Shown: positions 3,904 through 20,042, counted from the stretch's first letter. The stretch: DNA of 64,000 nt from an uncultured Gammaproteobacteria bacterium (GCA_964446685.1 CAYUPO010000007.1:233-64232), one strand, 5' to 3'. Numbers and translations: made by a program. Notes: generated by a model from the sequence alone, not told the origin.

Positions 3904-5163
3904 TTAATTATCTTTAGACAGATCGCTTATCCGAGCTGCTAAAAAGTATACTGACAGACTGACAAATAATAAAGTAGCAACGCTGACTGAAACCCAGACC
4001 ACCTGTGTGATAGTCTGATGAAATAAATTAATCCCAATCAACTGCAAAACAGCCGCAACTAAGGGAAATATCACTACTTTATTATGATTAACAGATAAAA
4101 AGAAATTTATAAATAACCCGCATAAGGCTAAAAATCCAGTAAACAGTGCATACGGCACTAGAAGTCCAATTCCGGCAAAATATTTCTCCCCGTATAACAG
4201 AGAAAGTACAAACTGAGGAAAAAGAAAATACATCAAAATAACACCTGATACTACAGCCGCTGTTGCGCCAATACTAAGTAAAAACATCGAAACATATTTT
4301 TCACCGGCAACATATCTTTTGGCAACCAATGGAAACATTACTGTTGAAACAGGAGCACTGGCAAATAAAATAATTTTACCGAGAGTAGAAACAGCAGCAA
4401 AAATTCCGGCTTCAAAACTGGAGAAAAAATGTTTGACGAGTACCAGATCAATTGTCATCAGCGAAGTCATAGCTACAGTTTGAATGAGTACAGGTAATGT
4501 AAAATTAAAAATATTTTTAGTATGTACTTTTTCAGTTGTCTGTATTTCCCGGTAATGCTTTAAAAAGAAAAATCCAGCAAGCCAGCCCGTAATAATAGCA
4601 ATTACTAAACCAACCATTGCCCCCATTACTCCAAAACCAAGCATTACAAACAATACGCCAGCAACAAGTTTCATTCCGGTTTCAGAAATAAGACCGATTA
4701 CCACCAAATGAAACTTGATCAATCCCTGTAGAACAGACCGATATAAATAAGCTGGCAGTCCAAACAGAAAAGAAACTGCAATCAGAATAATTCCTAAAGT
4801 ATGCGGAGTATTTAAATAATCAGCTAAAAAAGGTGAAAATGCAGCAGTACCCAGTGCTAATACAACCGACATGTAAAAAACCGGTTTAGTAAACCATTTC
4901 AGATAGGCAGCTGCTTCCTGATCATTTTTTGATGAAGCCACAAATTTAATAATTACTGTTCCAAACGACAATGGAACAACCGACAAAAGCCCAATCAGAG
5001 AAAAGAATGCCGATAACTCGCCATAAGAAGCAGGCCCCAGCAGTCTGCCCATTAATAAATGATAGAGATAATTGATTACATTAGTACTATTTGTACCAAT
5101 AATCATAATAAAACTTGAGGAAAATAAAGGATGTGATATGGCCCGTTTAATTATTTTTTTCAT
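3904..5163 (-). CDS. Oligosaccharide flippase, MOP superfamily (Wzx-like polysaccharide biosynthesis protein)
   Basis: About 12 predicted TM segments; the N-terminal ...GRLLGPASYGELSAFFSLIGLL motif is typical of Polysacc_synt. Start moved to the internal ATG (MKKIIKRAI), which forms an ATGA stop-start overlap with the upstream gene at 5160-5163. Confidence 0.6.
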   Translation of the reverse strand: MKKIIKRAISHPLFSSSFIMIIGTNSTNVINYLYHLLMGRLLGPASYGELSAFFSLIGLLSVVPLSFGTVIIKFVASSKNDQEAAAYLKWFTKPVFYMSVVLALGTAAFSPFLADYLNTPHTLGIILIAVSFLFGLPAYLYRSVLQGLIKFHLVVIGLISETGMKLVAGVLFVMLGFGVMGAMVGLVIAIITGWLAGFFFLKHYREIQTTEKVHTKNIFNFTLPVLIQTVAMTSLMTIDLVLVKHFFSSFEAGIFAAVSTLGKIILFASAPVSTVMFPLVAKRYVAGEKYVSMFLLSIGATAAVVSGVILMYFLFPQFVLSLLYGEKYFAGIGLLVPYALFTGFLALCGLFINFFLSVNHNKVVIFPLVAAVLQLIGINLFHQTITQVVWVSVSVATLLFVSLSVYFLAARISDLSKDN

Positions 5164-6413
5164 GCCACCCAGTACCCCCTTATAAATAAAATCGTAAAGA
5201 AACCCAGCATCAGACCCATTAACATAAACATAATTATCTGGATTATTCTTGGTAATTTTTCTATTAACAAAGCCCAAATAATAAATACCGGAAATACTAC
5301 CAAAACATAGCGCGATCCGGATGAAAAACTACCCTGAATCGTTGGCAATAAGATACTGGCTAAGGCATAAAATAAATATGAAATTCTAATTTTTTTAAAG
5401 TAGCCTACAATCACAAGTAATACAAAGGAAACAGTACTTACAAACTCAAGCAAAAAAGAGGCTAAAAATGTATTCACTTCCTGATAATGGATCAGAATAT
5501 TGAGATATCTGTAGACCACCTGAGGAAATAATATTATTCCTTTACCTCTGTGCTCCCCTATGATTGACTGAAGATTATAAAATGCCAGTGGATCACCAAC
5601 ACTCCACCATAAATAAGCCATATAAAGAAGCAATCCTCCTGGAATCAGCAATAAAGGAAAACTTTCTTTTAAAGATTTTTTTGACAGCCATAGATCAATT
5701 ATCAAAGACAAAAATAATAGCACACCAAATACTCTGGTAAATGATGCCAAAAACCCACAAACAGCAGCCAGCCAAAAATTATTCTTGCGGTAAAAATAAA
5801 ATGTTGCCACCGATAAAAAAAGAAACAAACTTTCGGTATAAAATGCAGCAAAGAAAAAAGAAGTCGGAAATAACAGTAAAAGCAATAAAGTCCGCCAGGC
5901 TATTTGACTAGAATAATCAAGTCTGGCAAGTTTAAAAAGCAAATATAAACTTCCAAGAAAACAAAGATGTGATATAACGAGGCCACTAAGAACTGCAGAC
6001 AAAAAATCAGTCTTTGAAAAAAATATTCCTATATGCACTAATAATGGATATAAAGGGAAAAAAGCCTGCTCCAGACTTTGATATCCTCTTAGCGCAATTG
6101 ATAGATAATGCTCACCATCATAATTTGCCCAGGGCATCAGATAAAAAAACTGGTTATACAACTGATAACCACCACCTAAAAAATTTCTGGAAAAAAGGGG
6201 CACAAAGATAAATCCCACTAAACCTACCACAAATAAAAATATCCTCCAGACGAGGAATAATCCACCTATTATCAGTATTTCCGGAGAAAGTTTATTTGTG
6301 AAGCGTAGTACCTCGAAAGCTTGCTTCGAGGATGAAGCGAGCAAAGAACTTGCCTTTAGAATACCTCTTAGCTTGCTGTTAGGTAGTTCATTTTTGAGAA
6401 ATTGCATATTCAT
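5160..6413 (-). CDS. Polytopic membrane protein, putative GT-C-type glycosyltransferase
   Basis: 417 aa and highly hydrophobic. Its N-terminus overlaps the 3' end of the upstream GT4 by 26 bp, so the true start is uncertain. Confidence 0.5.
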   Translation of the reverse strand: MNMQFLKNELPNSKLRGILKASSLLASSSKQAFEVLRFTNKLSPEILIIGGLFLVWRIFLFVVGLVGFIFVPLFSRNFLGGGYQLYNQFFYLMPWANYDGEHYLSIALRGYQSLEQAFFPLYPLLVHIGIFFSKTDFLSAVLSGLVISHLCFLGSLYLLFKLARLDYSSQIAWRTLLLLLLFPTSFFFAAFYTESLFLFLSVATFYFYRKNNFWLAAVCGFLASFTRVFGVLLFLSLIIDLWLSKKSLKESFPLLLIPGGLLLYMAYLWWSVGDPLAFYNLQSIIGEHRGKGIILFPQVVYRYLNILIHYQEVNTFLASFLLEFVSTVSFVLLVIVGYFKKIRISYLFYALASILLPTIQGSFSSGSRYVLVVFPVFIIWALLIEKLPRIIQIIMFMLMGLMLGFFTILFIRGYWVA

Positions 6414-7425
6414 AAACTTTTACGGTATCCTGCGCTGTTTTTTCCCAGGAAAATCGGCTTAAATTTTCAGTTCCTTTTTTTATCAAACCTTTTCTGTATT
6501 CGGCTTCTTGCAACTTAATCACCGCATCAGTGATCTCTGATCCGACAGCTGAATCTACTATTATACCGCCATCACCGACGACCTCTTTTAATGATGAATT
6601 ATTGCTGGTAATAACAGCCGTTTTACATGCCTGTGCTTCAAGGACAGGTAATCCAAAACCTTCATAATGAGACACCAATATTAAAGCCTGTGCAGCATTC
6701 ATCAGTCCTACTAAATCTTCATTAGGAATAAATCCCAGTATTTTAACTCCAGGATGATTTGAATACTTCTCTTTAAATTCTCTGAAGGGATTCAGCTCAG
6801 GATGATTTAAATCGCCTTTTGTTTCAAAACCACCTCCCACTAATACCAAAGGGACCTCTGCATCAATCACAGCCTGCGTCATTCTAACAAGATTCTTATT
6901 CCAGTTAACTCCTCCAGTATAGATGACAAAATTTTTCGGCAATTGGTACTTTAAACGTATGCGCTCTACTTCAGGAAGGGGAAGCGGTTTAAAATGATCC
7001 GCTTGAGACAAATATACGGTAAATACTTTTGCTTTCGGCAGATTAAAAACTTTGATGGCATCCTGAGTGGAAGTCTTGGAATCCGTAATAATCGCTTTGA
7101 CTTTTCTCAACGATAATTTTTGTCTTAGTAAATTAACTTTCCCTTTAAGCCCTGATGGATAATGAGTTGGAAATAAGAGCGGTATCACATCATGTATAGT
7201 AACAACTGTCGGGATATGAGAATTAACATTTAGTGTAGGACGAAAGAAATCAAAAAAAGGGAAATGAATTATATCCGCCTCAATATTTTCATTTTTATTT
7301 TCCAGAATACACACTTCCCAATCAGTATATTTTCGCAAAGCTTTAATCAGATTTTCTGTATAAAAACCAATTCCCCTCCCCTTACTCTGACTATCCATGG
7401 CAGAAATATCGATTGCTACTTTCAT
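6388..7425 (-). CDS. Glycosyltransferase family 4
   Basis: 345 aa. EGFGLPVLEAQACKTAVITSNNSSLKEVVGDGG C-terminal GT4 motif. Confidence 0.8.
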   Translation of the reverse strand: MKVAIDISAMDSQSKGRGIGFYTENLIKALRKYTDWEVCILENKNENIEADIIHFPFFDFFRPTLNVNSHIPTVVTIHDVIPLLFPTHYPSGLKGKVNLLRQKLSLRKVKAIITDSKTSTQDAIKVFNLPKAKVFTVYLSQADHFKPLPLPEVERIRLKYQLPKNFVIYTGGVNWNKNLVRMTQAVIDAEVPLVLVGGGFETKGDLNHPELNPFREFKEKYSNHPGVKILGFIPNEDLVGLMNAAQALILVSHYEGFGLPVLEAQACKTAVITSNNSSLKEVVGDGGIIVDSAVGSEITDAVIKLQEAEYRKGLIKKGTENLSRFSWEKTAQDTVKVYEYAISQK

Positions 7426-8282
7426 TTAGACAAATACCTCCAGTAAGCTCTGGGAAACCGTAAGGCTGAGAAAAAGGAAAAAATAATCCCCTGTACTCCA
7501 TCCAGTATTCCTTTATGACGAATTGTTGTCATCAAAAACCAGACAACCGGTTTAACTATTTCATAATTTAAAAAATTAATCAGATTTTTTTTGACTTTCT
7601 GCTCCTTTAACTGAGTTGCTAAAAGATCAATATACCGGCTATTTCGCTTAATATATCTTTCAAAGGTAGGTGAATCAACATGCAGCAAATCATGTTGCAA
7701 CCAGCCCACTTTACCACTGACAACCATCTGTTCATGAACATCTTTAGCCGGAAGATAAGCTTTATTCCGTTTAAATAAACGAATTACTCCATCCGGATAA
7801 ACTCCTCCATACCGTAAATACTTTCCCAAGAAATAATTTAGCCGGGGGAAAAAGAAAGCTACATACTCATCTTTATCATTTCCTATTGCACCATCCCGCT
7901 GTTCCAGCAGCAATTGATGCCGCTTAAACAACTGTTTGTTTTTTAAAGTCTGCTGGTATCTAGAAATTTCATCATCAGTCATTTGGATCAACTTTATTAT
8001 CTCTTTGGCCAGGTCTGAGGAAACTCTCTCGTCAGCATCTAAGTATAAAATCCATTCTCCTTTTGCCAGATCAAATGATTTTTGCTTATTGATATGAAAA
8101 TTGGGATGATTTTCAGTAACAACAACTTTCGCTCCAAATTGTTTGGCAATTTCCACAGTTTTGTCTTCTGATGTTCCATCTACGATGATTATTTCATCCG
8201 CAATTCCTTTGACAGAAGACAGACAATCAGCAATATTTGATTCTTCATTATAAGTAGCAATCGCCACCGAAAGTTTTGTCAT
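7422..8282 (-). CDS. Glycosyltransferase family 2 with C-terminal extension (LPS-core GT2-like)
   Basis: LSVAIATYNEESNI...IIVDGTSEDKT...LYLDADERV. Paralogous to the GT2s at 22524..23354 and 25984..26889. Confidence 0.75.
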   Translation of the reverse strand: MTKLSVAIATYNEESNIADCLSSVKGIADEIIIVDGTSEDKTVEIAKQFGAKVVVTENHPNFHINKQKSFDLAKGEWILYLDADERVSSDLAKEIIKLIQMTDDEISRYQQTLKNKQLFKRHQLLLEQRDGAIGNDKDEYVAFFFPRLNYFLGKYLRYGGVYPDGVIRLFKRNKAYLPAKDVHEQMVVSGKVGWLQHDLLHVDSPTFERYIKRNSRYIDLLATQLKEQKVKKNLINFLNYEIVKPVVWFLMTTIRHKGILDGVQGIIFSFFSALRFPRAYWRYLSK

Positions 8283-8284
8283 AA

Positions 8285-9979
8285 TTAGGTTTTTATGAAA
8301 ACAAAGGCATCTTCACCATTAGGATACTTCACTGAATCAATTATATCTCTTCCAGGGGGGACTTCTTTTGGTGTAACAATAAATAAAGTGTCTTTGCTTT
8401 GTAATATCTCTTCTGGAGTAACTGCTTTGAATTGAAATTTATCAAAATCCCTGACTGTCCCAAAATTAAATTTATCTCTTTCTGATAATTTAAGTTTCCC
8501 CTGATAATCTGACGAATTAAATGGCACTCCATTCTGCTGAGCTAACATCGCTTTGTAAAATAAAACTAAAATATATGGCTGATCATATCTGTCTGTCACT
8601 ACAACTTTAGAAAACTTTTGTTCCTGATTACCCATTTTACCAACCATCTCTTTAAATCCATATTCCCAGGCTAATGGATACCTTTTAGGTGAATGAATAT
8701 AATAACTTTCCAGATAATGAGTCATTTCAAAACCAATCCAGACAAAAATAAATATTGCCATTAGATATCCTAGACCTTTCAAATATTTTAAATTCCAAAG
8801 TTTATCAATAATCGCAGACATCCCAAGCCCCATCATCAGTACCAATGGAATTACCATCAGCAAAGCCCTGACCGCATTTGGAGTCTGATAAGTCATTGAT
8901 GATGCTAAAGGAGAAACAAATAACCAGAGTAAAACTAACCATTTAGTCTTGGATTCACTTTTTATTAAAACAAACAGACCAATTACTAAAAATAAGGCCA
9001 TTATCAGATAAAACTGCCCTGTTTCAGGTGTTTTATTGCGGATAATAGGATCCCCGTTAATAAACAAAAAATCGCCTTTAAAATGATCAACATAATGTCC
9101 AAAAAACTGGGGAGCAAAAGCCGTCAGTTTATTATGAAAAATCTTGGCTTGAGTGGACCCAAGATCTGCATGCTGACCCCTTAATTCATTTAACCTGTTT
9201 TCAGGTCCTTTATCGGATAAAAATGATAAACCGGCAAATCGGGCTGATCCTGACCCGCCCAAAAATTGAAATGCCAAAGGTACTGCTAAAACAGATAAGA
9301 CAGTCAAAATAATTACATAACTTTTTATTATTTTTTGATTATTTTTGACCTGATGAAAAAGATTTTTAAAATAAAGTAACAGCATACCTAACACCAGCAC
9401 CGGCACAACCAGTCTGGGACTTTGATAAGTGTACATGGCAATCAAAAATGACAGGAAAGAAAAAAACAGATACCACGGATCCCCCAGCTTCTTTATAAAC
9501 AAATAGACTCCCAGACATATAAAAAAAGTTGCAGCATTAGTTTCCCAACTACCTCTGGAAAAATGAATATGCCAGGGAGTTATCGCAAGAATCAGTGAAG
9601 ATGCTAAAGCAGGTCCTTTTTGGTTAAAAAGCTCTTTTGCTAGAAAATAGACTAACAAGACCGTTCCTATTCCAAATAAGGCTGATGGCAGTCTGAGTGC
9701 AAATTCATTAATCCCCAGTGACGCAATAAATGGCATCACCATATAAAAATAAAGCCCCGGTTTATAATCACCAAACGAGACAAATGACAGCGGCCACGGG
9801 TTACCATATTCATCTTTCCCTGTCTGCAACAGAGAATAAGCGTTGTAACCAATTGCTGCTTCATCCGCATTAAGGCCTGACGGATAATCCGCTATACCAG
9901 GAATCCGCAGTAAAGCCGCTAATATGACAATTAGCCCCAACAACACCTTAATACTTAATACTTTCCCCTTAATACTCAT
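8285..9979 (-). CDS. GT-C glycosyltransferase, PMT_2/GT39 (ArnT-like) family; paralog 1 of 6
   Basis: 564 aa. N-terminal ADEAAIGYNAYSLLQTGKDEYGNPWPLSFVSFGDYKPGLYFY motif, about 11 TM segments, then a soluble C-terminal domain. Confidence 0.75.
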   Translation of the reverse strand: MSIKGKVLSIKVLLGLIVILAALLRIPGIADYPSGLNADEAAIGYNAYSLLQTGKDEYGNPWPLSFVSFGDYKPGLYFYMVMPFIASLGINEFALRLPSALFGIGTVLLVYFLAKELFNQKGPALASSLILAITPWHIHFSRGSWETNAATFFICLGVYLFIKKLGDPWYLFFSFLSFLIAMYTYQSPRLVVPVLVLGMLLLYFKNLFHQVKNNQKIIKSYVIILTVLSVLAVPLAFQFLGGSGSARFAGLSFLSDKGPENRLNELRGQHADLGSTQAKIFHNKLTAFAPQFFGHYVDHFKGDFLFINGDPIIRNKTPETGQFYLIMALFLVIGLFVLIKSESKTKWLVLLWLFVSPLASSMTYQTPNAVRALLMVIPLVLMMGLGMSAIIDKLWNLKYLKGLGYLMAIFIFVWIGFEMTHYLESYYIHSPKRYPLAWEYGFKEMVGKMGNQEQKFSKVVVTDRYDQPYILVLFYKAMLAQQNGVPFNSSDYQGKLKLSERDKFNFGTVRDFDKFQFKAVTPEEILQSKDTLFIVTPKEVPPGRDIIDSVKYPNGEDAFVFIKT

Positions 9980-11652
9980 TTCGCAGTCTCCACCACTCTA
10001 AAAGCATTCAACCCATCTTTAAAATCAACATCTCCAATCAGACGGAATTCCGAAAAAGGTTTTACATCCTGATCTGGCAGTTCCTCTTTGGTCCCTATAA
10101 ATAAACTGTTTTTCATTCCTCTATCTCCCGGCCAATAAATATGCCGAAATTCAATGTTATCAATCTGTTTAACACTTCCTACATCAACCGAATTTTGGAC
10201 AAGCTGGGCTTGCTGCTGATACTTTGCAGGAGAGTATCTACTGTAAAACAAATAATAAATATATGGCTGTCCATAGGTATCAGTCATTACAATTTTGTCA
10301 TAATTGGCAGTCATAGCATTATTACTTATATCAGCTAATGCCAAACTTTGTTTATATCCATACAAATATCCCTGAGAATAAGTAACCGGTTGATGTACAA
10401 AGTAAGCATCCAGATACATCCCATAATTAAAAATCATTACCCCAACTACTCCAAGGGCAATGATAATTCCCGCTTTTTTTCTTGAGAGGCTTTTCCACAA
10501 AAAATAAAACCCAGCTGCTTCAAGTATGGTAAATGGTATCAGCAAATTAAGGTTTCTGACCATATTTATCAGATCGCGTGATAAGACTCCAGGCAGTGGA
10601 GCCAAAGCCAGATAAAGCAAAATAACAACAGAACTTTTTGATTTTTGTTTTACCAGAAAATAAAAGCCTAAGAGAACAAGGAGTAAAGAATAATAAGGAA
10701 GCACTCCCATATCAGGAATCTTATGCCTTGGACTATAATCCCCATCAACAAAAAGCATTTTCGGTGAAAAATAAATCACATATCTCTCCACTAAACCTCT
10801 GACATAAGCAAACCATTCCCCATGCAGCAGCTGAAATTGGGCGCTTTGCTGATCAAGGTTATCTTCTGCAGAAACTAAATTAATTTGTTCAGTTGATCTG
10901 GTATAGGCAAAAAAACTGGTTGTCGATAGCCTGTCCCCCTGACCGGAAAAAAGTAAAGTCCCGACCAATAAACCCGTAACCCCAAGCATTCCGATACCAG
11001 CCAAAAAACTTTTTGATAATATTTTTATCTGATCCCGGTATAAAATAATTAATCCTAAAACCAGCATTGGAACAAATAAACGTGAGGCCTGATAGGTAAT
11101 CAAAGATAATCCAAAAATTAATCCAGACAGAAAAAACCAATATTTCTTTTTTCCAAGTGCCACCACAAATAAATATACTCCGGCTAAATTTAAAACAGTC
11201 GCCATATTTGATTCCCAACCTCCTCTGGAAAAATGAATGGACAAAGGTGAGATCGCGGCAAACAAAGCCCCTGACAAAGACAACCATTTATTTTTGAAAA
11301 GTTCCTGCAGTAGCAAAAAAATTAAGACTATAAAAAAAGTTCCCGCAAGTATCGAAGGAAATCTAACTGCCAGTTCAGTTAATCCAAATATTGCAACAAA
11401 GGGAATTGCAGTATAAGCGTAAAGAGCCGGTTTATAATCTCCAAATGATTTCAGGTTTAGCGGCAATATTGCCCCATATTCATCTCTGCCGGTCAACATC
11501 AGTGAGTAAGCATTATAACCAAGCGCCGCCTCATCCCAGGTCAAACCAGGAGGAACAGCAGTCACCTGATAAATTCTTAGGAAAAATCCAAGAGCAATGA
11601 TAATTAAAAATGATAAATAAAACCGTTTCATAATTAATAAACAAATAAACAA
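9976..11652 (-). CDS. GT-C glycosyltransferase, PMT_2/GT39 family; paralog 2
   Basis: 558 aa. WDEAALGYNAYSLMLTGRDEYG...FGDYKPALYAY. ATGA overlap with paralog 1. Confidence 0.75.
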   Translation of the reverse strand: MFICLLIMKRFYLSFLIIIALGFFLRIYQVTAVPPGLTWDEAALGYNAYSLMLTGRDEYGAILPLNLKSFGDYKPALYAYTAIPFVAIFGLTELAVRFPSILAGTFFIVLIFLLLQELFKNKWLSLSGALFAAISPLSIHFSRGGWESNMATVLNLAGVYLFVVALGKKKYWFFLSGLIFGLSLITYQASRLFVPMLVLGLIILYRDQIKILSKSFLAGIGMLGVTGLLVGTLLFSGQGDRLSTTSFFAYTRSTEQINLVSAEDNLDQQSAQFQLLHGEWFAYVRGLVERYVIYFSPKMLFVDGDYSPRHKIPDMGVLPYYSLLLVLLGFYFLVKQKSKSSVVILLYLALAPLPGVLSRDLINMVRNLNLLIPFTILEAAGFYFLWKSLSRKKAGIIIALGVVGVMIFNYGMYLDAYFVHQPVTYSQGYLYGYKQSLALADISNNAMTANYDKIVMTDTYGQPYIYYLFYSRYSPAKYQQQAQLVQNSVDVGSVKQIDNIEFRHIYWPGDRGMKNSLFIGTKEELPDQDVKPFSEFRLIGDVDFKDGLNAFRVVETAK

Positions 11653-11726
11653 ATGTCAAATAAACAAATTCCAAATAAGGATAACCAATTTGACATTTGG
11701 CATTTGTTTATTGGATTATTTGTTTA

Positions 11727-13451
11727 TTAAATTTCTACTACTTCAAATGCACCTTTCCCATCCAAAAAATCAATCCGCTTTAACACCGGCGGAATACCAG
11801 GATAATTCCCTGGTGTTGAAATAACATATCCATGCTGATCCTTTAATTTTTCCTTCATCTCCCAGTCATTTATAAAATAAACATTATCCAACCTGTCTAC
11901 CCATCGCCAGTTACTTTGCGGGTAACGGACCAAATTTAAATTTGTCTGGTACTGACCTGGATCATACTGATTGTAAAAAAGATAAAAAATATGCGCCTCA
12001 CCGTATTTTTTGGATATAAATAGTGGCCTGTTATTAACATTCTCTTTGGTCATTACAAAATTAATCGCCTCTTTATAACCATATTGCCAGGACTGGGAAT
12101 ATTGTTTGGGATACTCCAGAAAATAGGTTGAAAAATACCAGTAGCTATTTATTATCATCAATAAAGTCACCACAATCACACCACTGACTGCGACAATTCT
12201 CAACCTATCCTTCAACCATATCCAGGCATCAGTCATTCCGACTCCAACAATTGCCTGTAGTGCTCCCAACATAAAAATACTTCGTAAAACATGCGGAGAC
12301 TCTCTGGTAATTGCAGCTGGAATTGGTGCCAAAAGCAGCCAGGCCATAAATAATTTAGCCGCCGATGGATATTTCCAAATTTTAAGCAAACCGTAAATCA
12401 AAAACGGCGCTTCAATTGCATACATCAGTCCCATCTGCTGCACTGAAAACTGATAATTATCACCGCCTGCTAAGAATAAAAACTGAGGAGAAAAATGACT
12501 TAGATAGTTTTTAGCAAAGACAAAGGCAAAATAGCTATAACGGTTATAAACCAGTTTAGTTGCCACCTCAGGCAAAGTACTGGCTCCTCTGGATTCATTC
12601 AGGAAATTAATTGCCCCTTCATCAACTATTGCTACCCAATAATACCTGGAAGATGAATCCTGAGTTAAAGCTAGAAATCCAGCCACTCCAATAAAGATTA
12701 GAAAAATAACCGCCGGTATGATCAATTTCACTTTTAATTCTTTGATTTGTCTCAGCTCACCAATTTTACTAAGAGCCACAGCAGCTAAAAATAAAGGCAC
12801 AAATACTCTGGCACTATTGTAAGTAAATAATGTTAACCCAAAAAACAAAGCTGATCCTGATAAAAATCCCAGCGAACGTTTTTTATAGCCAACGATCAAA
12901 AAATAAATTCCGACCAGAAAAAAACAAAGGGCCAGATTTGCTTCCAAAGCTGCCCGTGACAAAAAAGTATGCCAGGGAGAAATAGCCAGTAATAAAGCAG
13001 AAACTAACGCCCATTTTTGATTCTTTGATTCGGTCACAACTATCCAATAAAGCAATCCAACTGATAAAACACCGGCCAGCATTGAAGGAAGTCTGACCGC
13101 CCATTCATTCAAACCTAATAAAGCAATAAAAGGAACTGTAGTATAAATATATCCAGGCAGTTTAAAGTCCCCAAATGCTTCAAATGTTAAAGGAAAAATC
13201 CTCCCCCACTCATCTTTACCAGTTTCCAAAATTGAATAGGCATTGTAACCTAAAGATGTTTCATCCCAATTGAGCGATGGTGGAACGACGCCAAACCAAA
13301 AAAAACGCAAAAAAACAGCGAGTAACAGAATCACTCCAAGTATTGGATATTTGAAATCTCTCGACTTCACTCGAGACAGGTTTGATATTGGAAATTGGAT
13401 ATTATTAGAGATCATTATTAGTGTCAAATACCCGGAACATAATTTTGTCAA
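11727..13451 (-). CDS. GT-C glycosyltransferase, PMT_2/GT39 family; paralog 3
   Basis: 574 aa. WDETSLGYNAYSILETGKDEWG...FGDFKLPGYIY. The annotated start overlaps paralog 4 by 47 bp, so the true start is probably an internal Met (MISNN...). Confidence 0.7.
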   Translation of the reverse strand: MTKLCSGYLTLIMISNNIQFPISNLSRVKSRDFKYPILGVILLLAVFLRFFWFGVVPPSLNWDETSLGYNAYSILETGKDEWGRIFPLTFEAFGDFKLPGYIYTTVPFIALLGLNEWAVRLPSMLAGVLSVGLLYWIVVTESKNQKWALVSALLLAISPWHTFLSRAALEANLALCFFLVGIYFLIVGYKKRSLGFLSGSALFFGLTLFTYNSARVFVPLFLAAVALSKIGELRQIKELKVKLIIPAVIFLIFIGVAGFLALTQDSSSRYYWVAIVDEGAINFLNESRGASTLPEVATKLVYNRYSYFAFVFAKNYLSHFSPQFLFLAGGDNYQFSVQQMGLMYAIEAPFLIYGLLKIWKYPSAAKLFMAWLLLAPIPAAITRESPHVLRSIFMLGALQAIVGVGMTDAWIWLKDRLRIVAVSGVIVVTLLMIINSYWYFSTYFLEYPKQYSQSWQYGYKEAINFVMTKENVNNRPLFISKKYGEAHIFYLFYNQYDPGQYQTNLNLVRYPQSNWRWVDRLDNVYFINDWEMKEKLKDQHGYVISTPGNYPGIPPVLKRIDFLDGKGAFEVVEI

Positions 13452-15093
13452 ATGGATCTTTAAAAGTTTTATCAGCCTTCACTCCATCTGGAGTCTCAGA
13501 CTCTCCACCAATAATCATGGTGTTATTCTTATACTTATCGATATCCCAGCCCATCTTCTTAAAATAATATTTCCCCAGTGTGTATTCAGTCTGATCTAAA
13601 AATTTGAACTCTTTTTCAAAATCTTTCCAGTTTTGTGACTGGGACTGAAAATAGGTCGGATCCATTTTGGTATAAAAAGCTAAATAAATCTGCGGTTGAC
13701 CCTGAGACTGAGTAAAAAGCACCTGATCATATTTGTCTTTATTTTGCTCAGCAAATTTAAAAATCTCCTCGTAATTGTAATGAACTCCCCCCAAAGGACG
13801 TTCAAACTGGTGAAAAGCATAAAAATCAATTCGCACCACCAATGAGTAAACCATAACAACCATTAGAATACCCACAAAACTAAATTGAAGCCCTTTTATA
13901 TTTTTTAATAGTGAAAACACCCAATAGATACCGAGTGCAGCTAAAACGGGAAATAGCAGCAGTAATACCTCAACCCGCTGGGTATGCATGTAATTTCTGG
14001 TTAATGCTGCTGGAATTGGTGCCACCAGCAGCCATAAAAAAATAATCCGGCTTTGAGCAATTTTTAATTTAAACAAGGCAAAAATACCTGAGAGTATAAA
14101 TAGTATTTCCCAGACTGATAACAACCATTGTCCAGGCAGATTATACAAACTGGAATCAGACCGATCCGGCGAAGCTAGAAAAGTAGTTGAAAAGTACCCC
14201 AAATAATTTTGAGAAAACTGGCTACCGAGATAAGCCAGACGATTATTAATTACTCTGCCCCATGGCTGAGGAAGCGGATCACTGACCTGTTTTTCACGCA
14301 GTGCGCTGAGATTTTCGGAATTATAAATTGCGGCATCACTAGCTCTTCTTCCTGCCCCTGTAAATAACTGCCCGTAAGCCAAAAGTGAGACAAAAAGACC
14401 AAATAACACTACAAAACTTACCAACTCCTTCTTCTTAAAAATCTCTTTAATGTCACCCGTTTGAACGAATTTAAGAACCAATAGTCCACTTACAAATAAA
14501 GGAGTAAACAACTGGAATGAATAATAGCCAAACATAGTCAGCCCAAAACTTAGTGCAGACAAACCAAGAAGAACTCTTCTTTTGAGTCTGAAACCCTTCA
14601 AAAACAGCCACAGTCCCATCATAAAAAAGAAAATAGTCACATTTGATTCCCAGGCAGCTCGGGAATAAAAAAGATGCCAGGAAGAGATAGTTAAAATTAT
14701 TGAAGCTAGGAGCGCAATTTGTTTACTAAATAAGGGTTTTTGTTCATTTCTAAAAAGTTCCTCAACCAAAACAAATAGCATCAGGACACTCAACACGCCA
14801 AATAGCGCTGAGGGGAACCTGACAGCAAACATATTCAGATCAAACAAAGCCACACTCGGAACAGTTAAATAGACATACAGCGGCGGACGGTAATCACCAA
14901 AACTACGAGGAAAAATAGGCAAAAAGTCTCCCCATTCATCACGCCCGGTCTGCAATATAGAATAGGCACTATAGCCCTGCTGAATCTCATCTGGAGTGAC
15001 ACCAATAGGAACTTGCCCCAGCCAGGCAAAGCGCATTACTGCTGCTATTAGTACAACCACAACTAAAACAAAATATATTATTCGTTTGGACAT
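13405..15093 (-). CDS. GT-C glycosyltransferase, PMT_2/GT39 family; paralog 4
   Basis: PDEIQQGYSAYSILQTGRDEWG...FGDYRPPLYVY. Start moved from the TTG at 15150 to the ATG at 15091-15093 (MSKRIIYF...), preceded by a GAAGAG RBS-like site. Confidence 0.7.
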   Translation of the reverse strand: MSKRIIYFVLVVVVLIAAVMRFAWLGQVPIGVTPDEIQQGYSAYSILQTGRDEWGDFLPIFPRSFGDYRPPLYVYLTVPSVALFDLNMFAVRFPSALFGVLSVLMLFVLVEELFRNEQKPLFSKQIALLASIILTISSWHLFYSRAAWESNVTIFFFMMGLWLFLKGFRLKRRVLLGLSALSFGLTMFGYYSFQLFTPLFVSGLLVLKFVQTGDIKEIFKKKELVSFVVLFGLFVSLLAYGQLFTGAGRRASDAAIYNSENLSALREKQVSDPLPQPWGRVINNRLAYLGSQFSQNYLGYFSTTFLASPDRSDSSLYNLPGQWLLSVWEILFILSGIFALFKLKIAQSRIIFLWLLVAPIPAALTRNYMHTQRVEVLLLLFPVLAALGIYWVFSLLKNIKGLQFSFVGILMVVMVYSLVVRIDFYAFHQFERPLGGVHYNYEEIFKFAEQNKDKYDQVLFTQSQGQPQIYLAFYTKMDPTYFQSQSQNWKDFEKEFKFLDQTEYTLGKYYFKKMGWDIDKYKNNTMIIGGESETPDGVKADKTFKDPFDKIMFRVFDTNNDL

Positions 15094-15149
15094 CTCTTCA
15101 ATAAACCTACCTCTTAAGTATATAATGAACCAGGAACTAATGTAATCCA

Positions 15150-16874
15150 ATGGGACAGATCTTTAAAGTATCATCTTTGCGAAAAACAATCCTGCATCCT
15201 CTGTTTTTCCTTTTTTTAATAGGACTTTTGCTTAGATTGTATTTGTTAAACACTTTTCCAGCCGGGTTTCATATCGATGAAGTAAAAATGGGCTGGAATG
15301 CTTTATCCCTTCTCAAGACCGGTCAGGATGACTGGGGACACAGCTTCCCTCTCAACTACAATTCATTTGGCGATTTCAGGCCAACCGGCTACTTTTACAC
15401 TGTTATCCCTTCACTGATATTATTTGGCCAATCTGAATTCGCCGTCCGCTTTCCCTCGGCCTTATTTGGTTCACTGACTATCTTTGTGATCTATTTTTTA
15501 ACTAAAGAGTTACTGGAAAAATATGATCAGCGAAAAAAAGTAGCTTTACTTGCTTCACTTATCCTGGCTGTTTCCCCCTGGCATCTATCTTTATCCCGGG
15601 CCAGTTCTGAGGGAATTGTCGGGATGTTTTTTACCCTTTTAGGACTGTTATTTTTTATCAGGCTGGTTAAACACAAGAAACTCAATTATCTGCTTATTTC
15701 TGTTCCTCTGCTCATTTTGCCATACTTTTTTTATCACACCCCCAGGCTTTTGACACCGATATTAATGCTGGTTATCTGGGTTTTTCATTGGAAACCATGG
15801 CAAAGAAACTTTAAACCAAATCTTCTGATCACCTTCGCTGTAATCATTCTTTGTGCAGTAACCATCGCTTTTGCCCTAAATAAAGAAGCCAGAGGCCGTT
15901 TTTCCCAGGTTTCAATCTTCAATGATCTCAATATCAGGCACAATTTGGATCTGTTTCCTTTTGAAGAAGGCCATAACGATGTTTTAATGGCCCGGATTTT
16001 TCACAATAAATTGGTTTTGTGGACACAAGAAGGTATCAATGAGTTTACTCAGTATTTCTCAGCCAAATTTTTCTTAGTTCCGTTTGAAGCAAAACCAGCC
16101 AGATATGACACTGTCGGAATGGGAGTCTTAAGCTATATTGAATTATTATTACTTGTGGCAGGAGTGATTGCAGTCATCCGGGGTAAATATTCACTTTTAC
16201 CAATATTGCTTCTTTTATCGGCACCAATTCCGGCTTCACTCACAACAGAAGATGCTCCCAATCAGATGAGAGCTTTGTATATGATCCCATTTATAGCAAT
16301 AACCGGAGCATTTGGATTGCATTTTCTAAGCAACCTGTTACCAAAGTCTAAGCTGATACTGGGCAGTTTATTAGTCCTATTATTCCTCAATTTCCTCTTC
16401 TTCGAACATATGTATTTTATACACAATCCCCAGCGTCCTCCAATACCGGGAGATCGGAATGTCGGTGCAAAAGAAGCAGCGCTAAATATTCTGCTCCTTC
16501 AAAACAAGTATGACAAGATTATAGTAACAAATATTCCTGATAGTTTGTACCCCTGGTATGCCTATTTCTCCGGAGTTGATCCAGTCACATTTAATGAAAT
16601 AGCCAAAAACCGGGGTGAAAGAGCCTGGCAGTATCAAAATATAGTCTTTAGTACCGTCAGGTGCCCTTCCAGAGACGCTTTTACCAGAAATAATGACAAT
16701 GTTCTAGCAGTTGACGCTGAAGGTTGTGAAGGAGACGCGAAATATTCACCAGCCATACAAGTCCTGGGAAGAGTCCAAAGAGGCGACAAAGCCTACCCCT
16801 ACATCTTCTGGCACCGAGTAGAAAAGGAAACCTTTCCAATAGAAGCCACACCCTCGGCTCAACCTTCCAATTAA
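15150..16874 (+). CDS. GT-C glycosyltransferase, PMT_2/GT39 family; paralog 5. It is the only plus-strand member and is divergent from paralog 4
   Basis: 574 aa. IDEVKMGWNALSLLKTGQDDWG...FGDFRPTGYFY. Confidence 0.75.
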   Translation: MGQIFKVSSLRKTILHPLFFLFLIGLLLRLYLLNTFPAGFHIDEVKMGWNALSLLKTGQDDWGHSFPLNYNSFGDFRPTGYFYTVIPSLILFGQSEFAVRFPSALFGSLTIFVIYFLTKELLEKYDQRKKVALLASLILAVSPWHLSLSRASSEGIVGMFFTLLGLLFFIRLVKHKKLNYLLISVPLLILPYFFYHTPRLLTPILMLVIWVFHWKPWQRNFKPNLLITFAVIILCAVTIAFALNKEARGRFSQVSIFNDLNIRHNLDLFPFEEGHNDVLMARIFHNKLVLWTQEGINEFTQYFSAKFFLVPFEAKPARYDTVGMGVLSYIELLLLVAGVIAVIRGKYSLLPILLLLSAPIPASLTTEDAPNQMRALYMIPFIAITGAFGLHFLSNLLPKSKLILGSLLVLLFLNFLFFEHMYFIHNPQRPPIPGDRNVGAKEAALNILLLQNKYDKIIVTNIPDSLYPWYAYFSGVDPVTFNEIAKNRGERAWQYQNIVFSTVRCPSRDAFTRNNDNVLAVDAEGCEGDAKYSPAIQVLGRVQRGDKAYPYIFWHRVEKETFPIEATPSAQPSN

Positions 16875-17001
16875 ATATTTTTCGAACGATCAGTGAGAAA
16901 TTTCAAACAAATATAATAATTAACAGCTAACAAAATTGTATTTATTACGATTAAATACCAAATAATCACATGATTAATCACGTGAATATTCATGTGTTTT
17001 T

Positions 17002-18753
17002 TTACTGTTTAGTTACAACATAGAAAATTGGAGCACCTTGTGGATTTACAACGGTCTTTAATACTTTTACTCCTGATGGTGGAGTTTTACTCCAATCCCA
17101 ATCCCCTTCAACTTCATCCCTGGCAGCCATCAGATATAAATATCCGGGCTTCAAAAATTCCTGTACACTAAATGGTTTATCAGTATTGCCAAAATAATAC
17201 TTGCCGTCAAAAATAAATCCATTAAATCCTTCTACAACGTTCTTCTGTGATTTTAAATTATCAAACTGAGATTGAATTCTGGCAGGATCAGCTTTGGTCC
17301 ACATCAGATATCTATTTAAAGATGGTTCATAGGTATTATTAAAGAATACTTTCTCGTATTCACTCTGATGTTCTGCCACATACTGCATAGCTTCTTTAAA
17401 CCCAACATGCCACCATCTCCAGGATTCCACCGGATAATGCTGGTAATACCTGTGAAAATAAAATGTGGTATTAAACACAAATAAAATACCTACCAGACCC
17501 AGTAGACTAACAAAACCCCATCTTTGTTTATCCCGTAAACTCAAAACCTGATTTATCAAAAAAACTAATCCCAAAGCATTTAATATTACTAAAGGCGGCA
17601 GCATAATAAACATCCTGGTGGCATGATATCCGCCATCAGCTGTTAAAGAACCTGGTATTGGGGATAAAATAAGCCAGCCAAAGACCAGAAACATGACTTT
17701 CCGCTCTCCTCGGAAAATCAAAAACCAAACTCCTATTGCCAGCAAAATTATCTCAAAATAATATAACTCCCCCATCTCATGAATTGATTGTCTGAAATTA
17801 ATATCCCCTTCCGCAAACAAAAAATTAAGTGACAAAGCTTTCAGATAATTGGTTGAAAAAACCTGCAGATAAACAGTCGGCCGGTTATGAAAATAATTTT
17901 CGGATGAGACATCATTTGTTTTATATTCACCATCCGGAGTAAAGTATCCCAAATTTTTGCGAGCTAGATTGATCTTATCCACCAAAACAGTATCCGTAAA
18001 AATACTGATTCCGGAAAATCTATTAGTTGCCTGACCAGAAAAAATCGACAAAGCCACACCAGAGATAATCACCAATCCGATCAGAAAACTACTAATTAAC
18101 CACCTTGCCCCAATTGTTTTAAAGACTGATTTATTATTCAGATAAATTCCACCAAGCAATACAAGTAAAAGCGGCACAAAAGCCGCAGCAGTTGAATATA
18201 CATAAAAAGAAGCACTAAAGAGTATCGCTGCCACTACTAAAAAATAGCCTTTCTTAAACCCAACCAAAGTAAAATATGTCGCAAAAAGCAAAAAAGACAG
18301 TAGCATTGTCACTTCAAAAGAGGCTCTTGAATACTGCAAATGCCAGGGAGATATCGCCATCAAAAACATTGCAGCAAGTGCTGTTGGAATATTAAATAAT
18401 TTTCTGGTTAATAAAAAAATCCCTATCAAAGAAACCAGACCCCAAAAAACAGCCGGCAACCTAACACCCCATTCATTAAGCCCAAAAACACCAACAAAAG
18501 GAACTGCTGAGTAAATATAAAGTGAAGCCCGGTATTCAGTCAGAGATTTTAAATAAAGCGGCATGCTCCTGCCACTAATATCTTTACCGGTTGTTAAAAG
18601 TGAATAAGCCTGATACCCAACATCAACTTCATCACCAAATAACGCGGGTGGTACAGTATCCAAATGGTAAACCCGCAAAAATGTACCCAGCACCAAAATA
18701 AACAAAATTGCGGTAATTGTTAAATACAGTTTTGAAAAAGCACTCATTGCCAT
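17002..18753 (-). CDS. GT-C glycosyltransferase, PMT_2/GT39 family; paralog 6
   Basis: 583 aa. GDEVDVGYQAYSLLTTGKDISG...LTEYRASLYIY. Confidence 0.75.
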   Translation of the reverse strand: MAMSAFSKLYLTITAILFILVLGTFLRVYHLDTVPPALFGDEVDVGYQAYSLLTTGKDISGRSMPLYLKSLTEYRASLYIYSAVPFVGVFGLNEWGVRLPAVFWGLVSLIGIFLLTRKLFNIPTALAAMFLMAISPWHLQYSRASFEVTMLLSFLLFATYFTLVGFKKGYFLVVAAILFSASFYVYSTAAAFVPLLLVLLGGIYLNNKSVFKTIGARWLISSFLIGLVIISGVALSIFSGQATNRFSGISIFTDTVLVDKINLARKNLGYFTPDGEYKTNDVSSENYFHNRPTVYLQVFSTNYLKALSLNFLFAEGDINFRQSIHEMGELYYFEIILLAIGVWFLIFRGERKVMFLVFGWLILSPIPGSLTADGGYHATRMFIMLPPLVILNALGLVFLINQVLSLRDKQRWGFVSLLGLVGILFVFNTTFYFHRYYQHYPVESWRWWHVGFKEAMQYVAEHQSEYEKVFFNNTYEPSLNRYLMWTKADPARIQSQFDNLKSQKNVVEGFNGFIFDGKYYFGNTDKPFSVQEFLKPGYLYLMAARDEVEGDWDWSKTPPSGVKVLKTVVNPQGAPIFYVVTKQ

Positions 18754-20042
18754 TTAAAAAGTTTCTCCCTTTTTTCCTGATCCAGTAATTCTTTCAGAAA
18801 AACAATATAGTTGTAAACCAGTAAAACAGCATACCCCACCACCAACCAGGTCAAAAAGATATTTGATTTAGTTAGTTCCAGAATAACCGGAATTCCCGGC
18901 TGAAATAATCCTCTATACAAATTGATAAAGTGCAGAAAAGTAAAATAAACCAGATTTATCCAATGAATCTTTTTAAAACAAACTAAAACAGTGGCAAAAA
19001 GAACCACCGGAATCATATATCTCTCATGCATCCTGGTAAAAAAGAAAAAATAAAACCCGGACACTAAAAACAGATAATAAAACAGCTGATAATAATTTGT
19101 CTTTTTAATAAAATAAATCAAACTAAGCGGTGCTATAAAGCTCAAAAACAATAAATATCCCCATAGATCAAATGACAAACCTAAATATTTTTGGTTGGAT
19201 GATAATATTTCATAATTTGAAAAAGTCCCCCACATATTTAAAGCATTTTCAGCTACACCAAAATCAACTAAAGTAAAATTTGAATAATAAAACTGCAGCG
19301 GCCAGATCAGAGAAAAAGAATGAAATGGCAGATATGATAGATACAAAATAATTAATGAAACAGCAATTGATTTAAGACTGTTTTTTAATCCAAACTCTTT
19401 AAAAATATAAAAAATATACACTCCCCATAAAAGTAAAATTGTATGTTTTGTCATCAATGCCACACCAGCAAAAATAAATGACCACCACAACTTTTTATTT
19501 ATCAAAAAACCAAAGGCTAGTAATAGCAACAAATTTTGCAGTAAATCCGTCTGTCCCCAAACTGAGGACACATAAATAACTGCCGGATTTAGTAGCAAAA
19601 ACAACGCAATAATATATCTATTTTTAACTAATAACTTTTCTTTAGTTTTTTTTAAAATTAATGGCAAAACAGCTGCAAATAAAATAGTCGCAATAAGTCC
19701 CGGCAGTTTTAGAAAGGAGATTAAAGTATTTTCCCATTCCATACCAAAAACCAATCGTGAAGGGAAAAAGCTAATTGACGAATTTAGCCAATAGACAGCA
19801 CTTAGACTAATCTGATAAATCCACAAGCTTCCGGCGAAAGCATACATTGTTAAAGGCGGATATGTGGGAAATGAAAAACCAGGAAATCGTCTCTCAAAAA
19901 AATCCACACTTCCATAATCTAAAATACTTCTTCCCCAAACGACATGATTTTTCACATCTCCGGAATATATCGGCAGAGAAATATAAAAATATATCACAAA
20001 GGAAATAACTAAAAACAAACTAAATAATATTTTTTTAATCAT
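18744..20042 (-). CDS. Polytopic membrane protein, DUF2029/GT87-like putative GT-C glycosyltransferase
   Basis: 432 aa. The ...NPAVIYVSSVWGQTDLL motif is shared with 28750..30123 and 20057..21328. Confidence 0.55.
   Translation of the reverse strand: MIKKILFSLFLVISFVIYFYISLPIYSGDVKNHVVWGRSILDYGSVDFFERRFPGFSFPTYPPLTMYAFAGSLWIYQISLSAVYWLNSSISFFPSRLVFGMEWENTLISFLKLPGLIATILFAAVLPLILKKTKEKLLVKNRYIIALFLLLNPAVIYVSSVWGQTDLLQNLLLLLAFGFLINKKLWWSFIFAGVALMTKHTILLLWGVYIFYIFKEFGLKNSLKSIAVSLIILYLSYLPFHSFSLIWPLQFYYSNFTLVDFGVAENALNMWGTFSNYEILSSNQKYLGLSFDLWGYLLFLSFIAPLSLIYFIKKTNYYQLFYYLFLVSGFYFFFFTRMHERYMIPVVLFATVLVCFKKIHWINLVYFTFLHFINLYRGLFQPGIPVILELTKSNIFLTWLVVGYAVLLVYNYIVFLKELLDQEKREKLFKWQ

Follow-up and report, generated by a model that had tools for sequence, protein, structure and literature searches.

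The 64,000-nucleotide stretch of DNA analysed here, which we call the window, carries at 8285-18753 six adjacent open reading frames (ORFs), P1 to P6, that encode GT-C-type membrane glycosyltransferases (GT) of 551-583 amino acids (aa). We consider it rather probable that they diverged long ago within one uncharacterised Microgenomates GT-C subfamily and are each conserved, that they depend on polyprenyl-phosphate sugars, and that they differ in acceptor or linkage specificity and are not redundant. The host of the window is a small-genome Microgenomates bacterium of the candidate phyla radiation (CPR). A first-pass annotation, made from the sequence of the window, had proposed six paralogous GT-C genes at this place. 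The genes are real: all six ORFs lie at the place that it gave, six of six match the Pfam family PMT_2, and their products can be aligned over the full length.

Old paralogs in a conserved order

Amino-acid identity among pairs of the six proteins is 24-34 %, and the most divergent pair, P3 and P5, is still recovered by BLASTP at E=1e-37. Besides D39-E40 (P1 numbering), about 30 more positions are invariant across P1-P6, with G44, S49, G54, D56, G59 and P63 among them. The shared ancestry that had been proposed is thus upheld by the alignments. The N-terminal loop motif described for all six genes stands as written in P1-P4 but is degenerate in P5 (GWNALS, TGQDDWG) and in P6 (GYQAYS, TGKDISG, SLTEYRAS).

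We compared the window with related loci and assemblies, which are given L-numbers here. Twenty related loci were gathered by a search with P1 alone, and tandem arrays are the rule in them; Daviesbacteria have 3-5 copies, Amesbacteria 4, Collierbacteria 5-6 and Gottesmanbacteria 4-8. In a neighbour-joining tree of 75 members, every window paralog falls in an orthogroup of its own. The bootstrap values, which where paired refer to trees first lacking and then including the Amesbacteria and Collierbacteria members, are 100/82 for P1, 100/95 for P2, 94 for P3, 100 for P5 and 99/100 for P6. The value for P4 is 100 with L003, 82 once L008 is added and 30 beyond, and the orthology of P4 at the depth of Amesbacteria and Collierbacteria is less certain. 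Orthologues of P1 in Candidatus Daviesbacteria are 55-68 % identical to it, and no paralog in the window comes near this value. Those of P5 are 45-78 % identical (45-59 % in Blackburnbacteria and Woesebacteria), and P4 has orthologues in L003 (71 %) and in L008.

Orthologues of P1, P2, P3 and P6 are found in Daviesbacteria, Amesbacteria and Collierbacteria with the gene order kept, and the recurring block reads [P6][P4][PTPS-like] P3-P2-P1-GT2-GT4-PIG-V-like(-Wzx-GT2-GT4-epimerase). Because these orthologues stand in conserved order across the three groups, the duplications that gave rise to P1, P2, P3 and P6 are, as judged from these comparisons, old and precede the split of the class-level lineages. 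The repeated tandem duplication followed by diversification that had been envisaged for the array therefore holds in so far as the genes are true paralogs, but it was not recent. The 56-bp divergent spacer between P4 and the inverted P5 had been correctly recognised, and both the spacer and the inversion recur in three further assemblies. Two of them (L025 and L026) have all six genes, the inverted P5 lying between P4 and P6, and the third (L003) has the same layout minus P6. A profile of the six paralogs matches 6,703 cluster representatives (50 % identity clusters) at E<=1e-30, and on this count the subfamily, which is without any characterised member, appears large.

Selection was measured against a 97.5 % identical sister strain (L022/L023). 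The ratio of nonsynonymous to synonymous substitution rates (dN/dS) is 0.09 for P1, 0.03 for P2 and 0.08 for P3, and it is 0.06-0.10 for the C-terminal domains and 0.04-0.06 for the neighbouring GT2, GT4 and PIG-V-like genes. Strong purifying selection acts on every copy that could be measured. A dN/dS between paralogs is not meaningful because synonymous sites are saturated at 24-34 % amino-acid identity. For the diversification that had been suggested for the C-terminal domains, these values give no sign of diversifying selection still at work.

Family and fold of the six enzymes

All six proteins match Pfam PMT_2 (PF13231), at 35.0-53.9 bits compared to a gathering threshold of 26.1 (E 2e-8 to 3e-14, with P1 at E=7e-10). 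The match to Pfam PMT (PF02366) is marginal in P1-P5 (22.8-32.6 bits, gathering threshold 22.7) and missing in P6. The Pfam scan of P1-P6 revealed neither MIR domains nor PMT_4TMC, a defining C-terminal four-TM module of the PMT family. The curated bacterial Pmt model NF058602 (cutoff 800 bits) matches none of P1-P6 at E<=0.01, and the ArnT model NF009784 (cutoff 567 bits) matches only P4 and P5, at 19.6-19.9 bits. Pfam STT3 has no match in the six, and the archaeal STT3 model of NCBIfam has one, to P5, which stays below its cutoff (E=0.006, 15 bits). Agl23 TIGR03663 (cutoff 126 bits) matches P1-P5 at 25.7-46.3 bits over the N-terminal part only, and does not match P6. The six-paralog profile finds nothing among PDB sequences at E<=1, while a profile of 52 sequences has STT3 as its sole match, a marginal one over transmembrane (TM) helices 2-4 (E=0.0014).

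The AlphaFold2 model of P1, built with 52 homologues, has a pLDDT of 89.1 and a pTM of 0.90. It contains about 11 TM helices, a first outward loop after TM1 with two short helices and D39/E40, a helical outward loop at ~243-307 and a C-terminal alpha/beta domain at ~434-564. D39-E40 is invariant in P1-P6 and in the 52 homologues, and is located where helix 38-53 begins, just behind TM1. When PDB was searched with this model using Foldseek, every match at E<=0.001 was a GT-C enzyme. STT3 has the best E value (2e-9) and ArnT, at 3.5e-7, the best size-normalised TM-score (0.52-0.55). Further matches are AglB/PglB, Pmt4, ALG12 and DPY19, with AftD just outside (E=0.016), and identity in the near-full-length matches is 10-14 %. 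The GT-C superfamily has an integral membrane domain of 7-13 TM helices (PMC11127046), and the array agrees with this class in TM-helix count, in the acidic residues of the first extracytoplasmic loop and in structural similarity to solved enzymes.

P1-P6 are GT-C-fold, PMT_2-type transferases about equally far from STT3, ArnT and PMT. Their homologues are automatically named 'glycosyltransferase family 39 protein' at NCBI and 'ArnT-like' at JGI, and the first-pass annotation had called the genes GT39-like. With the PMT matches marginal and the scores for the curated O-mannosyltransferase, ArnT and STT3 models below their cutoffs, such names are nominal labels and should not be transferred as function.

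In P1-P6 the soluble domain at the C-terminus measures about 126-147 aa. Modelled alone it reaches a pLDDT of 87, and its fold has no match in PDB better than E=0.09 (TM-score 0.37). No Pfam family was found in any of the six C-terminal domains taken alone, and a search with the C-domain model alone did not find the oligosaccharyltransferase (OST) 'CC unit' or the C-terminal fold of AglB/PglB. Based on helix order and the K-rich N-terminus, we infer that both this domain and loop 245-320 face outward.

Where the paralogs differ and what they may do

To describe where the paralogs differ, we give the identity within and between orthogroups for each part of the protein. The N-terminal core (16-166, P1 numbering) has 0.55 within and 0.43 between (ratio 1.29), the membrane segments 0.39 and 0.24-0.25 (1.56-1.64), loop 245-320 0.48 and 0.24 (1.95) and the C-terminal domain 0.46 and 0.24 (1.89). 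The C-terminal domains of P1-P4 are mutually detectable by BLASTP (E 1e-14 to 7e-4) and those of P5 and P6 are barely or not detectable with the other paralogs, while the N-terminal and TM parts match across paralogs at E 1e-35 to 1e-75. A shared catalytic core is confirmed, the N-terminal part having 43 % mean identity between paralog groups compared to about 24 % for the remainder. The C-terminal domains do diverge as had been described (from E 1e-14 to undetectable), but they are 126-147 rather than ~150 aa long and loop 245-320 follows the same pattern. Paralog-specific conservation is thus concentrated in the loop and the C-terminal domain, the two parts predicted to be outward, and the pattern reads as paralog-specific constraint without ongoing diversification. 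A set of different specificities, as had been suggested, fits such conservation in outward-facing parts.

A motif W-x-Y-G-[FY] directly follows the last TM helix (P1 residues 437-442, about 8654-8671). Its orthogroup versions are AWEYGF in P1, GWLYGY in P2, SWQYGY in P3 and WWHVGF in P6, and it is degenerate in P4 and P5. The x of W-x-Y-G is constant inside each orthogroup but changes from one to the next (P1, E; P2, L; P3, Q; P6, H). The window itself reads AWEYG, GYLYG, SWQYG, GVHYN, DRNVG and WWHVG from P1 to P6. In STT3, AglB and PglB the WWDYG motif forms the Ser/Thr pocket (PMC3703281). The W-x-Y-G of the array recalls this STT3-type motif in position and composition. Since the WWD triad itself is not conserved, we take the likeness as a lead and not as a membership criterion.

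According to the explanation that we favour, each of the six enzymes would take a sugar from a polyprenyl-phosphate-linked donor on the outward side of the membrane. GT2 or GT2-GtrA enzymes of the surrounding glycan island would make this donor, which would then be flipped outward, and each enzyme would add its sugar to a cell-surface glycoconjugate at its own position or linkage, starting from a lipid-linked precursor begun in the cytoplasm by the co-operonic GT2 and GT4 and exported by the Wzx-type flippase. The outward loop, the motif after the last TM helix and the C-terminal domain may set acceptor specificity. The array would be a fixed set of non-redundant steps comparable to the luminal ALG or the mycobacterial Emb/Aft/Mpt series, and not a variable repertoire. 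Systems composed of a GT2 synthase, a flippase and a GT-C enzyme have been described, as have C-terminal acceptor-binding modules in GT-C enzymes (PMC11127046), and the C-terminal extracytoplasmic domain of EmbC binds its acceptor (PMC3044687). Because of the operon with GT2, GT4 and Wzx, we prefer a polysaccharide or a lipid-linked glycan over a set of proteins as the acceptor.

Several observations weigh against this explanation. No score comes near a curated family cutoff, with Agl23, ArnT, STT3 and Pmt all far below. Neither a Pfam family nor a PDB fold corresponds to the C-terminal domain (best E=0.09), and its proposed role as the acceptor-recognition domain is an analogy, the domain matching no known carbohydrate-binding module or fold; we infer acceptor binding from the likeness to other GT-C enzymes. 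The GT2 next to P1 resembles soluble GT2 enzymes more than it does polyprenyl-phosphate-sugar synthases, and the clear GT2-GtrA fusion is 27 kb away. The top structural matches are STT3-type OSTs, compatible with a protein acceptor or with an oligosaccharide donor linked through pyrophosphate (PP). Sequential work on one polymer and parallel work on several acceptors both fit, and an array size of 3-8 genes between lineages fits decoration as well as backbone assembly.

It is conceivable that at least six GT-C enzymes act in sequence as a conserved extracytoplasmic assembly line, like that of the endoplasmic reticulum (ER) or of mycobacteria, with W-x-Y-G, loop 245-320 and the C-terminal domain setting specificity and with a novel major envelope polymer or glycoprotein coat as the product. 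We hold this extended proposal as tentative and somewhat doubtful. If true, Microgenomates, which are ultrasmall bacteria, would devote ~6 % of a <1-Mb genome to an envelope coat.

One alternative explanation is that the six are protein glycosyltransferases of PMT/TMTC or STT3 type, each acting on different secreted or surface proteins such as pilins, S-layer or adhesin-like proteins. Eukaryotes do keep several PMT/TMTC paralogs with distinct protein substrates. PF02366 is just above its cutoff in five of the six, STT3 provides the top Foldseek matches as well as the sole PDB profile match, and W-x-Y-G with its helix right after the last TM segment (WWHVG in P6) occupies the site of WWDYG in STT3, AglB and PglB (PMC3703281). 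This alternative nevertheless appears unlikely: the NCBIfam models for protein O-mannosyltransferase and STT3 are not reached, the WWD triad is not conserved and the central residue of W-x-Y-G varies among the paralogs, and the C-terminal domain alone matches no AglB/PglB C-terminal domain. A tight, conserved operon that joins GT2 and GT4 genes to a further GT-C and a Wzx flippase is, moreover, more typical of glycan assembly.

We give a smaller chance to the possibility that the enzymes are obligate hetero-oligomers, forming one complex or a few, in which some copies may be regulatory, for which heteromeric GT-C paralogs such as Pmt1-Pmt2 and EmbA-EmbB are a known precedent. Translational coupling by ATGA or 11-nt overlaps and the strict P3-P2-P1 adjacency would agree with such complexes. 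The D-E pair and the core residues are, however, intact in six of six, none of the copies looking catalytically dead from its sequence, and P4, P5 and P6 come and go independently across genomes. Hetero-oligomers would in any case be compatible with the explanation we favour.

A recent, lineage-specific expansion that provides a fast-evolving or switchable surface repertoire, with the inverted gene as part of the switch, is very improbable. The copy number of 3-8 depending on lineage and a short gene-conversion tract in the sister strain, where 30 nt at the P2 5' end equal the P1 5' end, would point in this direction, but the paralogs are only 24-34 % identical, orthologues at 45-78 % identity occupy the same array position elsewhere, dN/dS is at or below 0.10 and no simple-sequence tracts were found. 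With the orientation of P5 fixed in four assemblies and no long inverted repeats on its flanks, an invertible or phase-variable switch at P5 is rejected.

Finally, a single repeated gene mis-assembled into an array can be dismissed, since DNA repeats between the copies (period 1670-1730 bp) are limited to stretches of 33-63 nt at 62-87 % identity, nowhere near the >95 % nucleotide identity that had been named as the sign of an artefact; nothing speaks in its favour, and assemblies obtained independently of one another (NCBI, JGI, ENA and several Logan runs; L003, L022-L026) show the same arrangement.

Junctions, transcription units and the glycan island

The coordinates of the array, its spacers and the principal neighbouring genes are collected in Table 1. 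The internal ATGs are likely the starts of P2, P3 and P4. The starts of P2 (551 aa) and P4 (562 aa) correspond to identical gene calls on a 66,630-bp NCBI contig, and the P3 orthologue in L023 is likewise called at 562 aa. The product of P5 has a 100 % identical record in the databases, and an exact look-up of the P1 product found none.

Table 1. Genes and spacers of the array and of the surrounding island (window coordinates; a single number is one position of the gene)
Feature	Coordinates	Strand	Description
P1	8285-9979	-	564-aa GT-C (PMT_2-type) transferase; immediately upstream of the conserved GT2 and GT4 genes
P2	9976-11631	-	551 aa from ATG 11631; longest ORF to TTG 11652
P3	11727-13415	-	562 aa from ATG 13415; longest ORF to TTG 13451
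P4	13405-15093	-	562 aa from ATG 15093; longest ORF to 15150
P5	15150-16874	+	574 aa; inverted member; most diverged C-terminal domain
P6	17002-18753	-	583 aa; last gene of the upstream minus-strand unit
P3/P2 spacer	11632-11726		95 bp; 43-nt imperfect palindrome and 15-nt repeat in 2.5 copies
P4/P5 divergent spacer	15094-15149		56 bp; element GTATATAAT at 15118-15126, promoter-like matches
P5/P6 convergent spacer	16875-17001		127 bp; overlapping palindrome 16961-16999, then T runs on both strands
GT2	7422-8282	-	Pfam; conserved downstream partner of P1
GT4	6388-7425	-	Pfam; conserved downstream partner of P1
PIG-V-like GT-C	5160-6413	-	Pfam; conserved downstream partner of P1
Wzx/MOP-type flippase	3904-5277	-	Pfam Polysacc_synt_3, E=4e-16; same minus-strand gene string
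GT2-GtrA fusion	46255-47439	-	GtrA_DPMS_TM E=5e-22 and Glycos_transf_2 E=8e-20; 27 kb from P1-P6
GT87-like	20057		GT-C-type island gene
YfhO	23392		GT-C-type island gene
PTPS_related	34934		GT-C-type island gene
PTPS_related	36630		GT-C-type island gene
PMT_2	38371		GT-C-type island gene
PMT_2	39935		GT-C-type island gene
PMT_2	42169		GT-C-type island gene
PMT-like	44533		GT-C-type island gene

The ATGA or short overlaps that had been ascribed to the minus-strand members exist at two junctions, P2/P1 (the sole ATGA overlap) and P4/P3 (11 nt), but P3 and P2 are separated by a 95-bp spacer and P5 and P6 converge on 127 bp. The P3/P2 spacer measures 34 bp in L003 and L025 and is replaced by an ATGA overlap in the sister strain. 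In that strain (L022 1235-1327; L023 2128-2220), the P2 5' end carries 30 nt that are the same as the P1 5' end. The MK[KR]F start of the window protein is also found in L003 and L025, and because these two share it with the window, a short gene conversion between paralogs probably occurred in the sister strain.

Within GTATATAAT, a TATAAT at 15121-15126 lies 23 nt upstream of the P5 ATG. The element is kept in L003 and L025 and, in approximate form, in L026, while the remaining spacer varies. The P4/P5 spacer is a probable divergent promoter region, in which the TATAAT would probably be the -10 box of the P5 promoter, and the P5/P6 spacer is a probable bidirectional terminator. Gene layout and spacing suggest three transcription units, namely ...GT2-GT4-GT87-U432-P6, P5 alone, and P4-P3-P2-P1-GT2-GT4-PIGV-Wzx-... 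The unit upstream of P6 consists of a GT2, a GT4, the GT87-like gene, a 432-aa membrane protein and P6 itself, and P6 has the same neighbours in L025 and L026. The 432-aa protein is adjacent to P6 in L006, L025 and L026, and has a weak match to NF046093 ('cell surface glycopolymer formation protein').

The array lies inside a ~53-kb glycan island, mainly on the minus strand, that extends from 938 to ~53770. The island would amount to ~6 % of the genome if that genome is sized like the complete Daviesbacteria chromosome L008 (820,589 bp). It contains six stand-alone GT2 genes, three GT4 genes and two Wzx-type flippase genes, and at least 15 of its genes match GT-C-type Pfam families. The trio GT2-GT4-PIG-V-like follows P1 in nearly all related loci, the synteny P3-P2-P1-GT2-GT4(-PIGV) extends over Daviesbacteria, Amesbacteria and Collierbacteria, and the Wzx-type flippase gene is kept in L003, L022, L007 and L008. 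The GT2 adjacent to P1 is nearest to the TIGR04283/SunS type, far below cutoffs. The GT2-GtrA fusion has the architecture of a polyprenyl-phosphate-sugar synthase, and may provide the lipid-linked donor for P1-P6.

Other parts of the island are also rich in membrane enzymes. Two adjacent PTPS_related genes at 34934-38318 form another tandem GT-C set. A further set consists of the PMT_2 genes at 38371, 39935 and 42169, among which small DPM/ArnC/PgfS-like GT2 genes (41391, 43789) are interspersed. These PMT_2 genes belong to other subfamilies, since they score only 33-47 bits with the P1-P6 profile; gene 39935 is the most ArnT-like (72 bits). The segment 47541-53770, beside the GT2-GtrA fusion, carries a GDP-sugar epimerase/reductase-like gene and genes for GDP-mannose 4,6-dehydratase, RmlD, RmlC, RmlB and RmlA, which suggests that the island is supplied with rhamnose and 6-deoxyhexose. 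Just past the rml genes, 54183-55127 (-) encodes a protein with a CAP (cysteine-rich secretory protein) domain. Four large multi-pass proteins have no Pfam family (30120-33485, 28750-30123 and 18744-20042 on the minus strand, 27043-28716 on the plus strand). One of them, of 1121 aa, has an N-terminus resembling a signal peptide and ~470 aa of soluble N-terminal region, followed by many TM helices and a C-terminal domain that is again soluble; another is the 432-aa protein upstream of P6. Several metagenome-assembled genome (MAG) records among L004-L007, L009, L012, L014 and L018-L021 are labelled 'uncultured Gammaproteobacteria' or 'uncultured Pseudomonadales' despite loci of Microgenomates type, and these labels look like placeholders or errors.

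Comparison with known systems

As a kind of system the array is ordinary, being a set of paralogous GT-C transferases in a surface-glycan locus and not a new kind of system. No paper on arrays of GT-C or GT39 genes in CPR, Microgenomates or Daviesbacteria turned up in the literature searches, and a Patescibacteria genetics paper does not mention glycosyltransferases. There is almost no experimental knowledge of Microgenomates and CPR cell envelopes, the surface at which episymbionts presumably contact their hosts. A fixed, non-redundant GT-C block under purifying selection offers tractable candidate enzymes for defining the surface glycan, with a core of P3-P2-P1 and GT2-GT4 common to class-level lineages and with specific residues named that may set acceptor specificity in an uncharacterised GT-C subfamily.

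The best size-normalised match to the P1 model is ArnT (GT83; PDB 5ezm/5f15), the undecaprenyl-phosphate-L-Ara4N:lipid A transferase, with TMq 0.52-0.53 and TMt 0.54-0.55. Both combine a GT-C multi-TM core with an extracytoplasmic alpha/beta domain behind it at the C-terminus, and they are of similar size. Identity is, however, 10-11 %, and there are six co-conserved paralogs instead of one enzyme. Lipid A synthesis is not known from Microgenomates, so the acceptor of ArnT is unlikely to be present. With PMT (GT39) and TMTC the six enzymes share an Asp-Glu pair in the first extracytoplasmic loop, the PMT_2 match and the marginal PMT matches. Foldseek, in contrast, aligns only ~270-290 columns of most PMT chains (~510 of one Pmt4, at a TM-score of 0.45-0.50), and P1-P6 carry a C-terminal soluble domain that is not known from PMTs. 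The likeness to STT3, AglB and PglB comprises the Foldseek matches (E 2e-9 to 6e-6) and a C-terminal alpha/beta domain that opens with an aromatic W-x-Y-G and then a helix, whereas the WWD triad and the DK/MI motifs of these enzymes are not conserved in P1-P6.

Tandem GT-C paralogs are also found in mycobacteria as embC-embA-embB (GT53) and in the Aft, Mpt and PimE enzymes, which assemble envelope glycans outside the cytoplasm from polyprenyl-phosphate sugars, with acceptor or linkage differing from enzyme to enzyme (PMC3044687; PMC11127046). Compared to the Emb/Aft series, P1-P6 have no detectable sequence relationship, a weak fold match to AftD (E=0.016) and half the size, and unlike in Emb the C-terminal domain has no recognisable carbohydrate-binding module. 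Three-component systems (GtrA/GtrB/Gtr, Citrobacter GT136 and CsbB/YfhO) resemble the island in that a GT2 lipid-phosphate-sugar synthase (here the candidates are the GT2-GtrA fusion and the small DPM/ArnC-like GT2 enzymes), flippases and GT-C enzymes come together (PMC11127046). In those systems each modification has a single GT-C, and mobile or serotype-specific forms are frequent, whereas here six order-fixed paralogs are tied to a GT2-GT4-Wzx block across class-level lineages. The eukaryotic luminal enzymes ALG3/9/12/6/8/10 belong to a different GT-C subclass and have no sequence relationship to P1-P6, although ALG12 and ALG9 are among the fold matches of P1. The analogy that may be drawn to them is one of concept, in which cytoplasmic GT2 and GT4 enzymes and a MOP-type flippase are followed by one GT-C enzyme for each residue.

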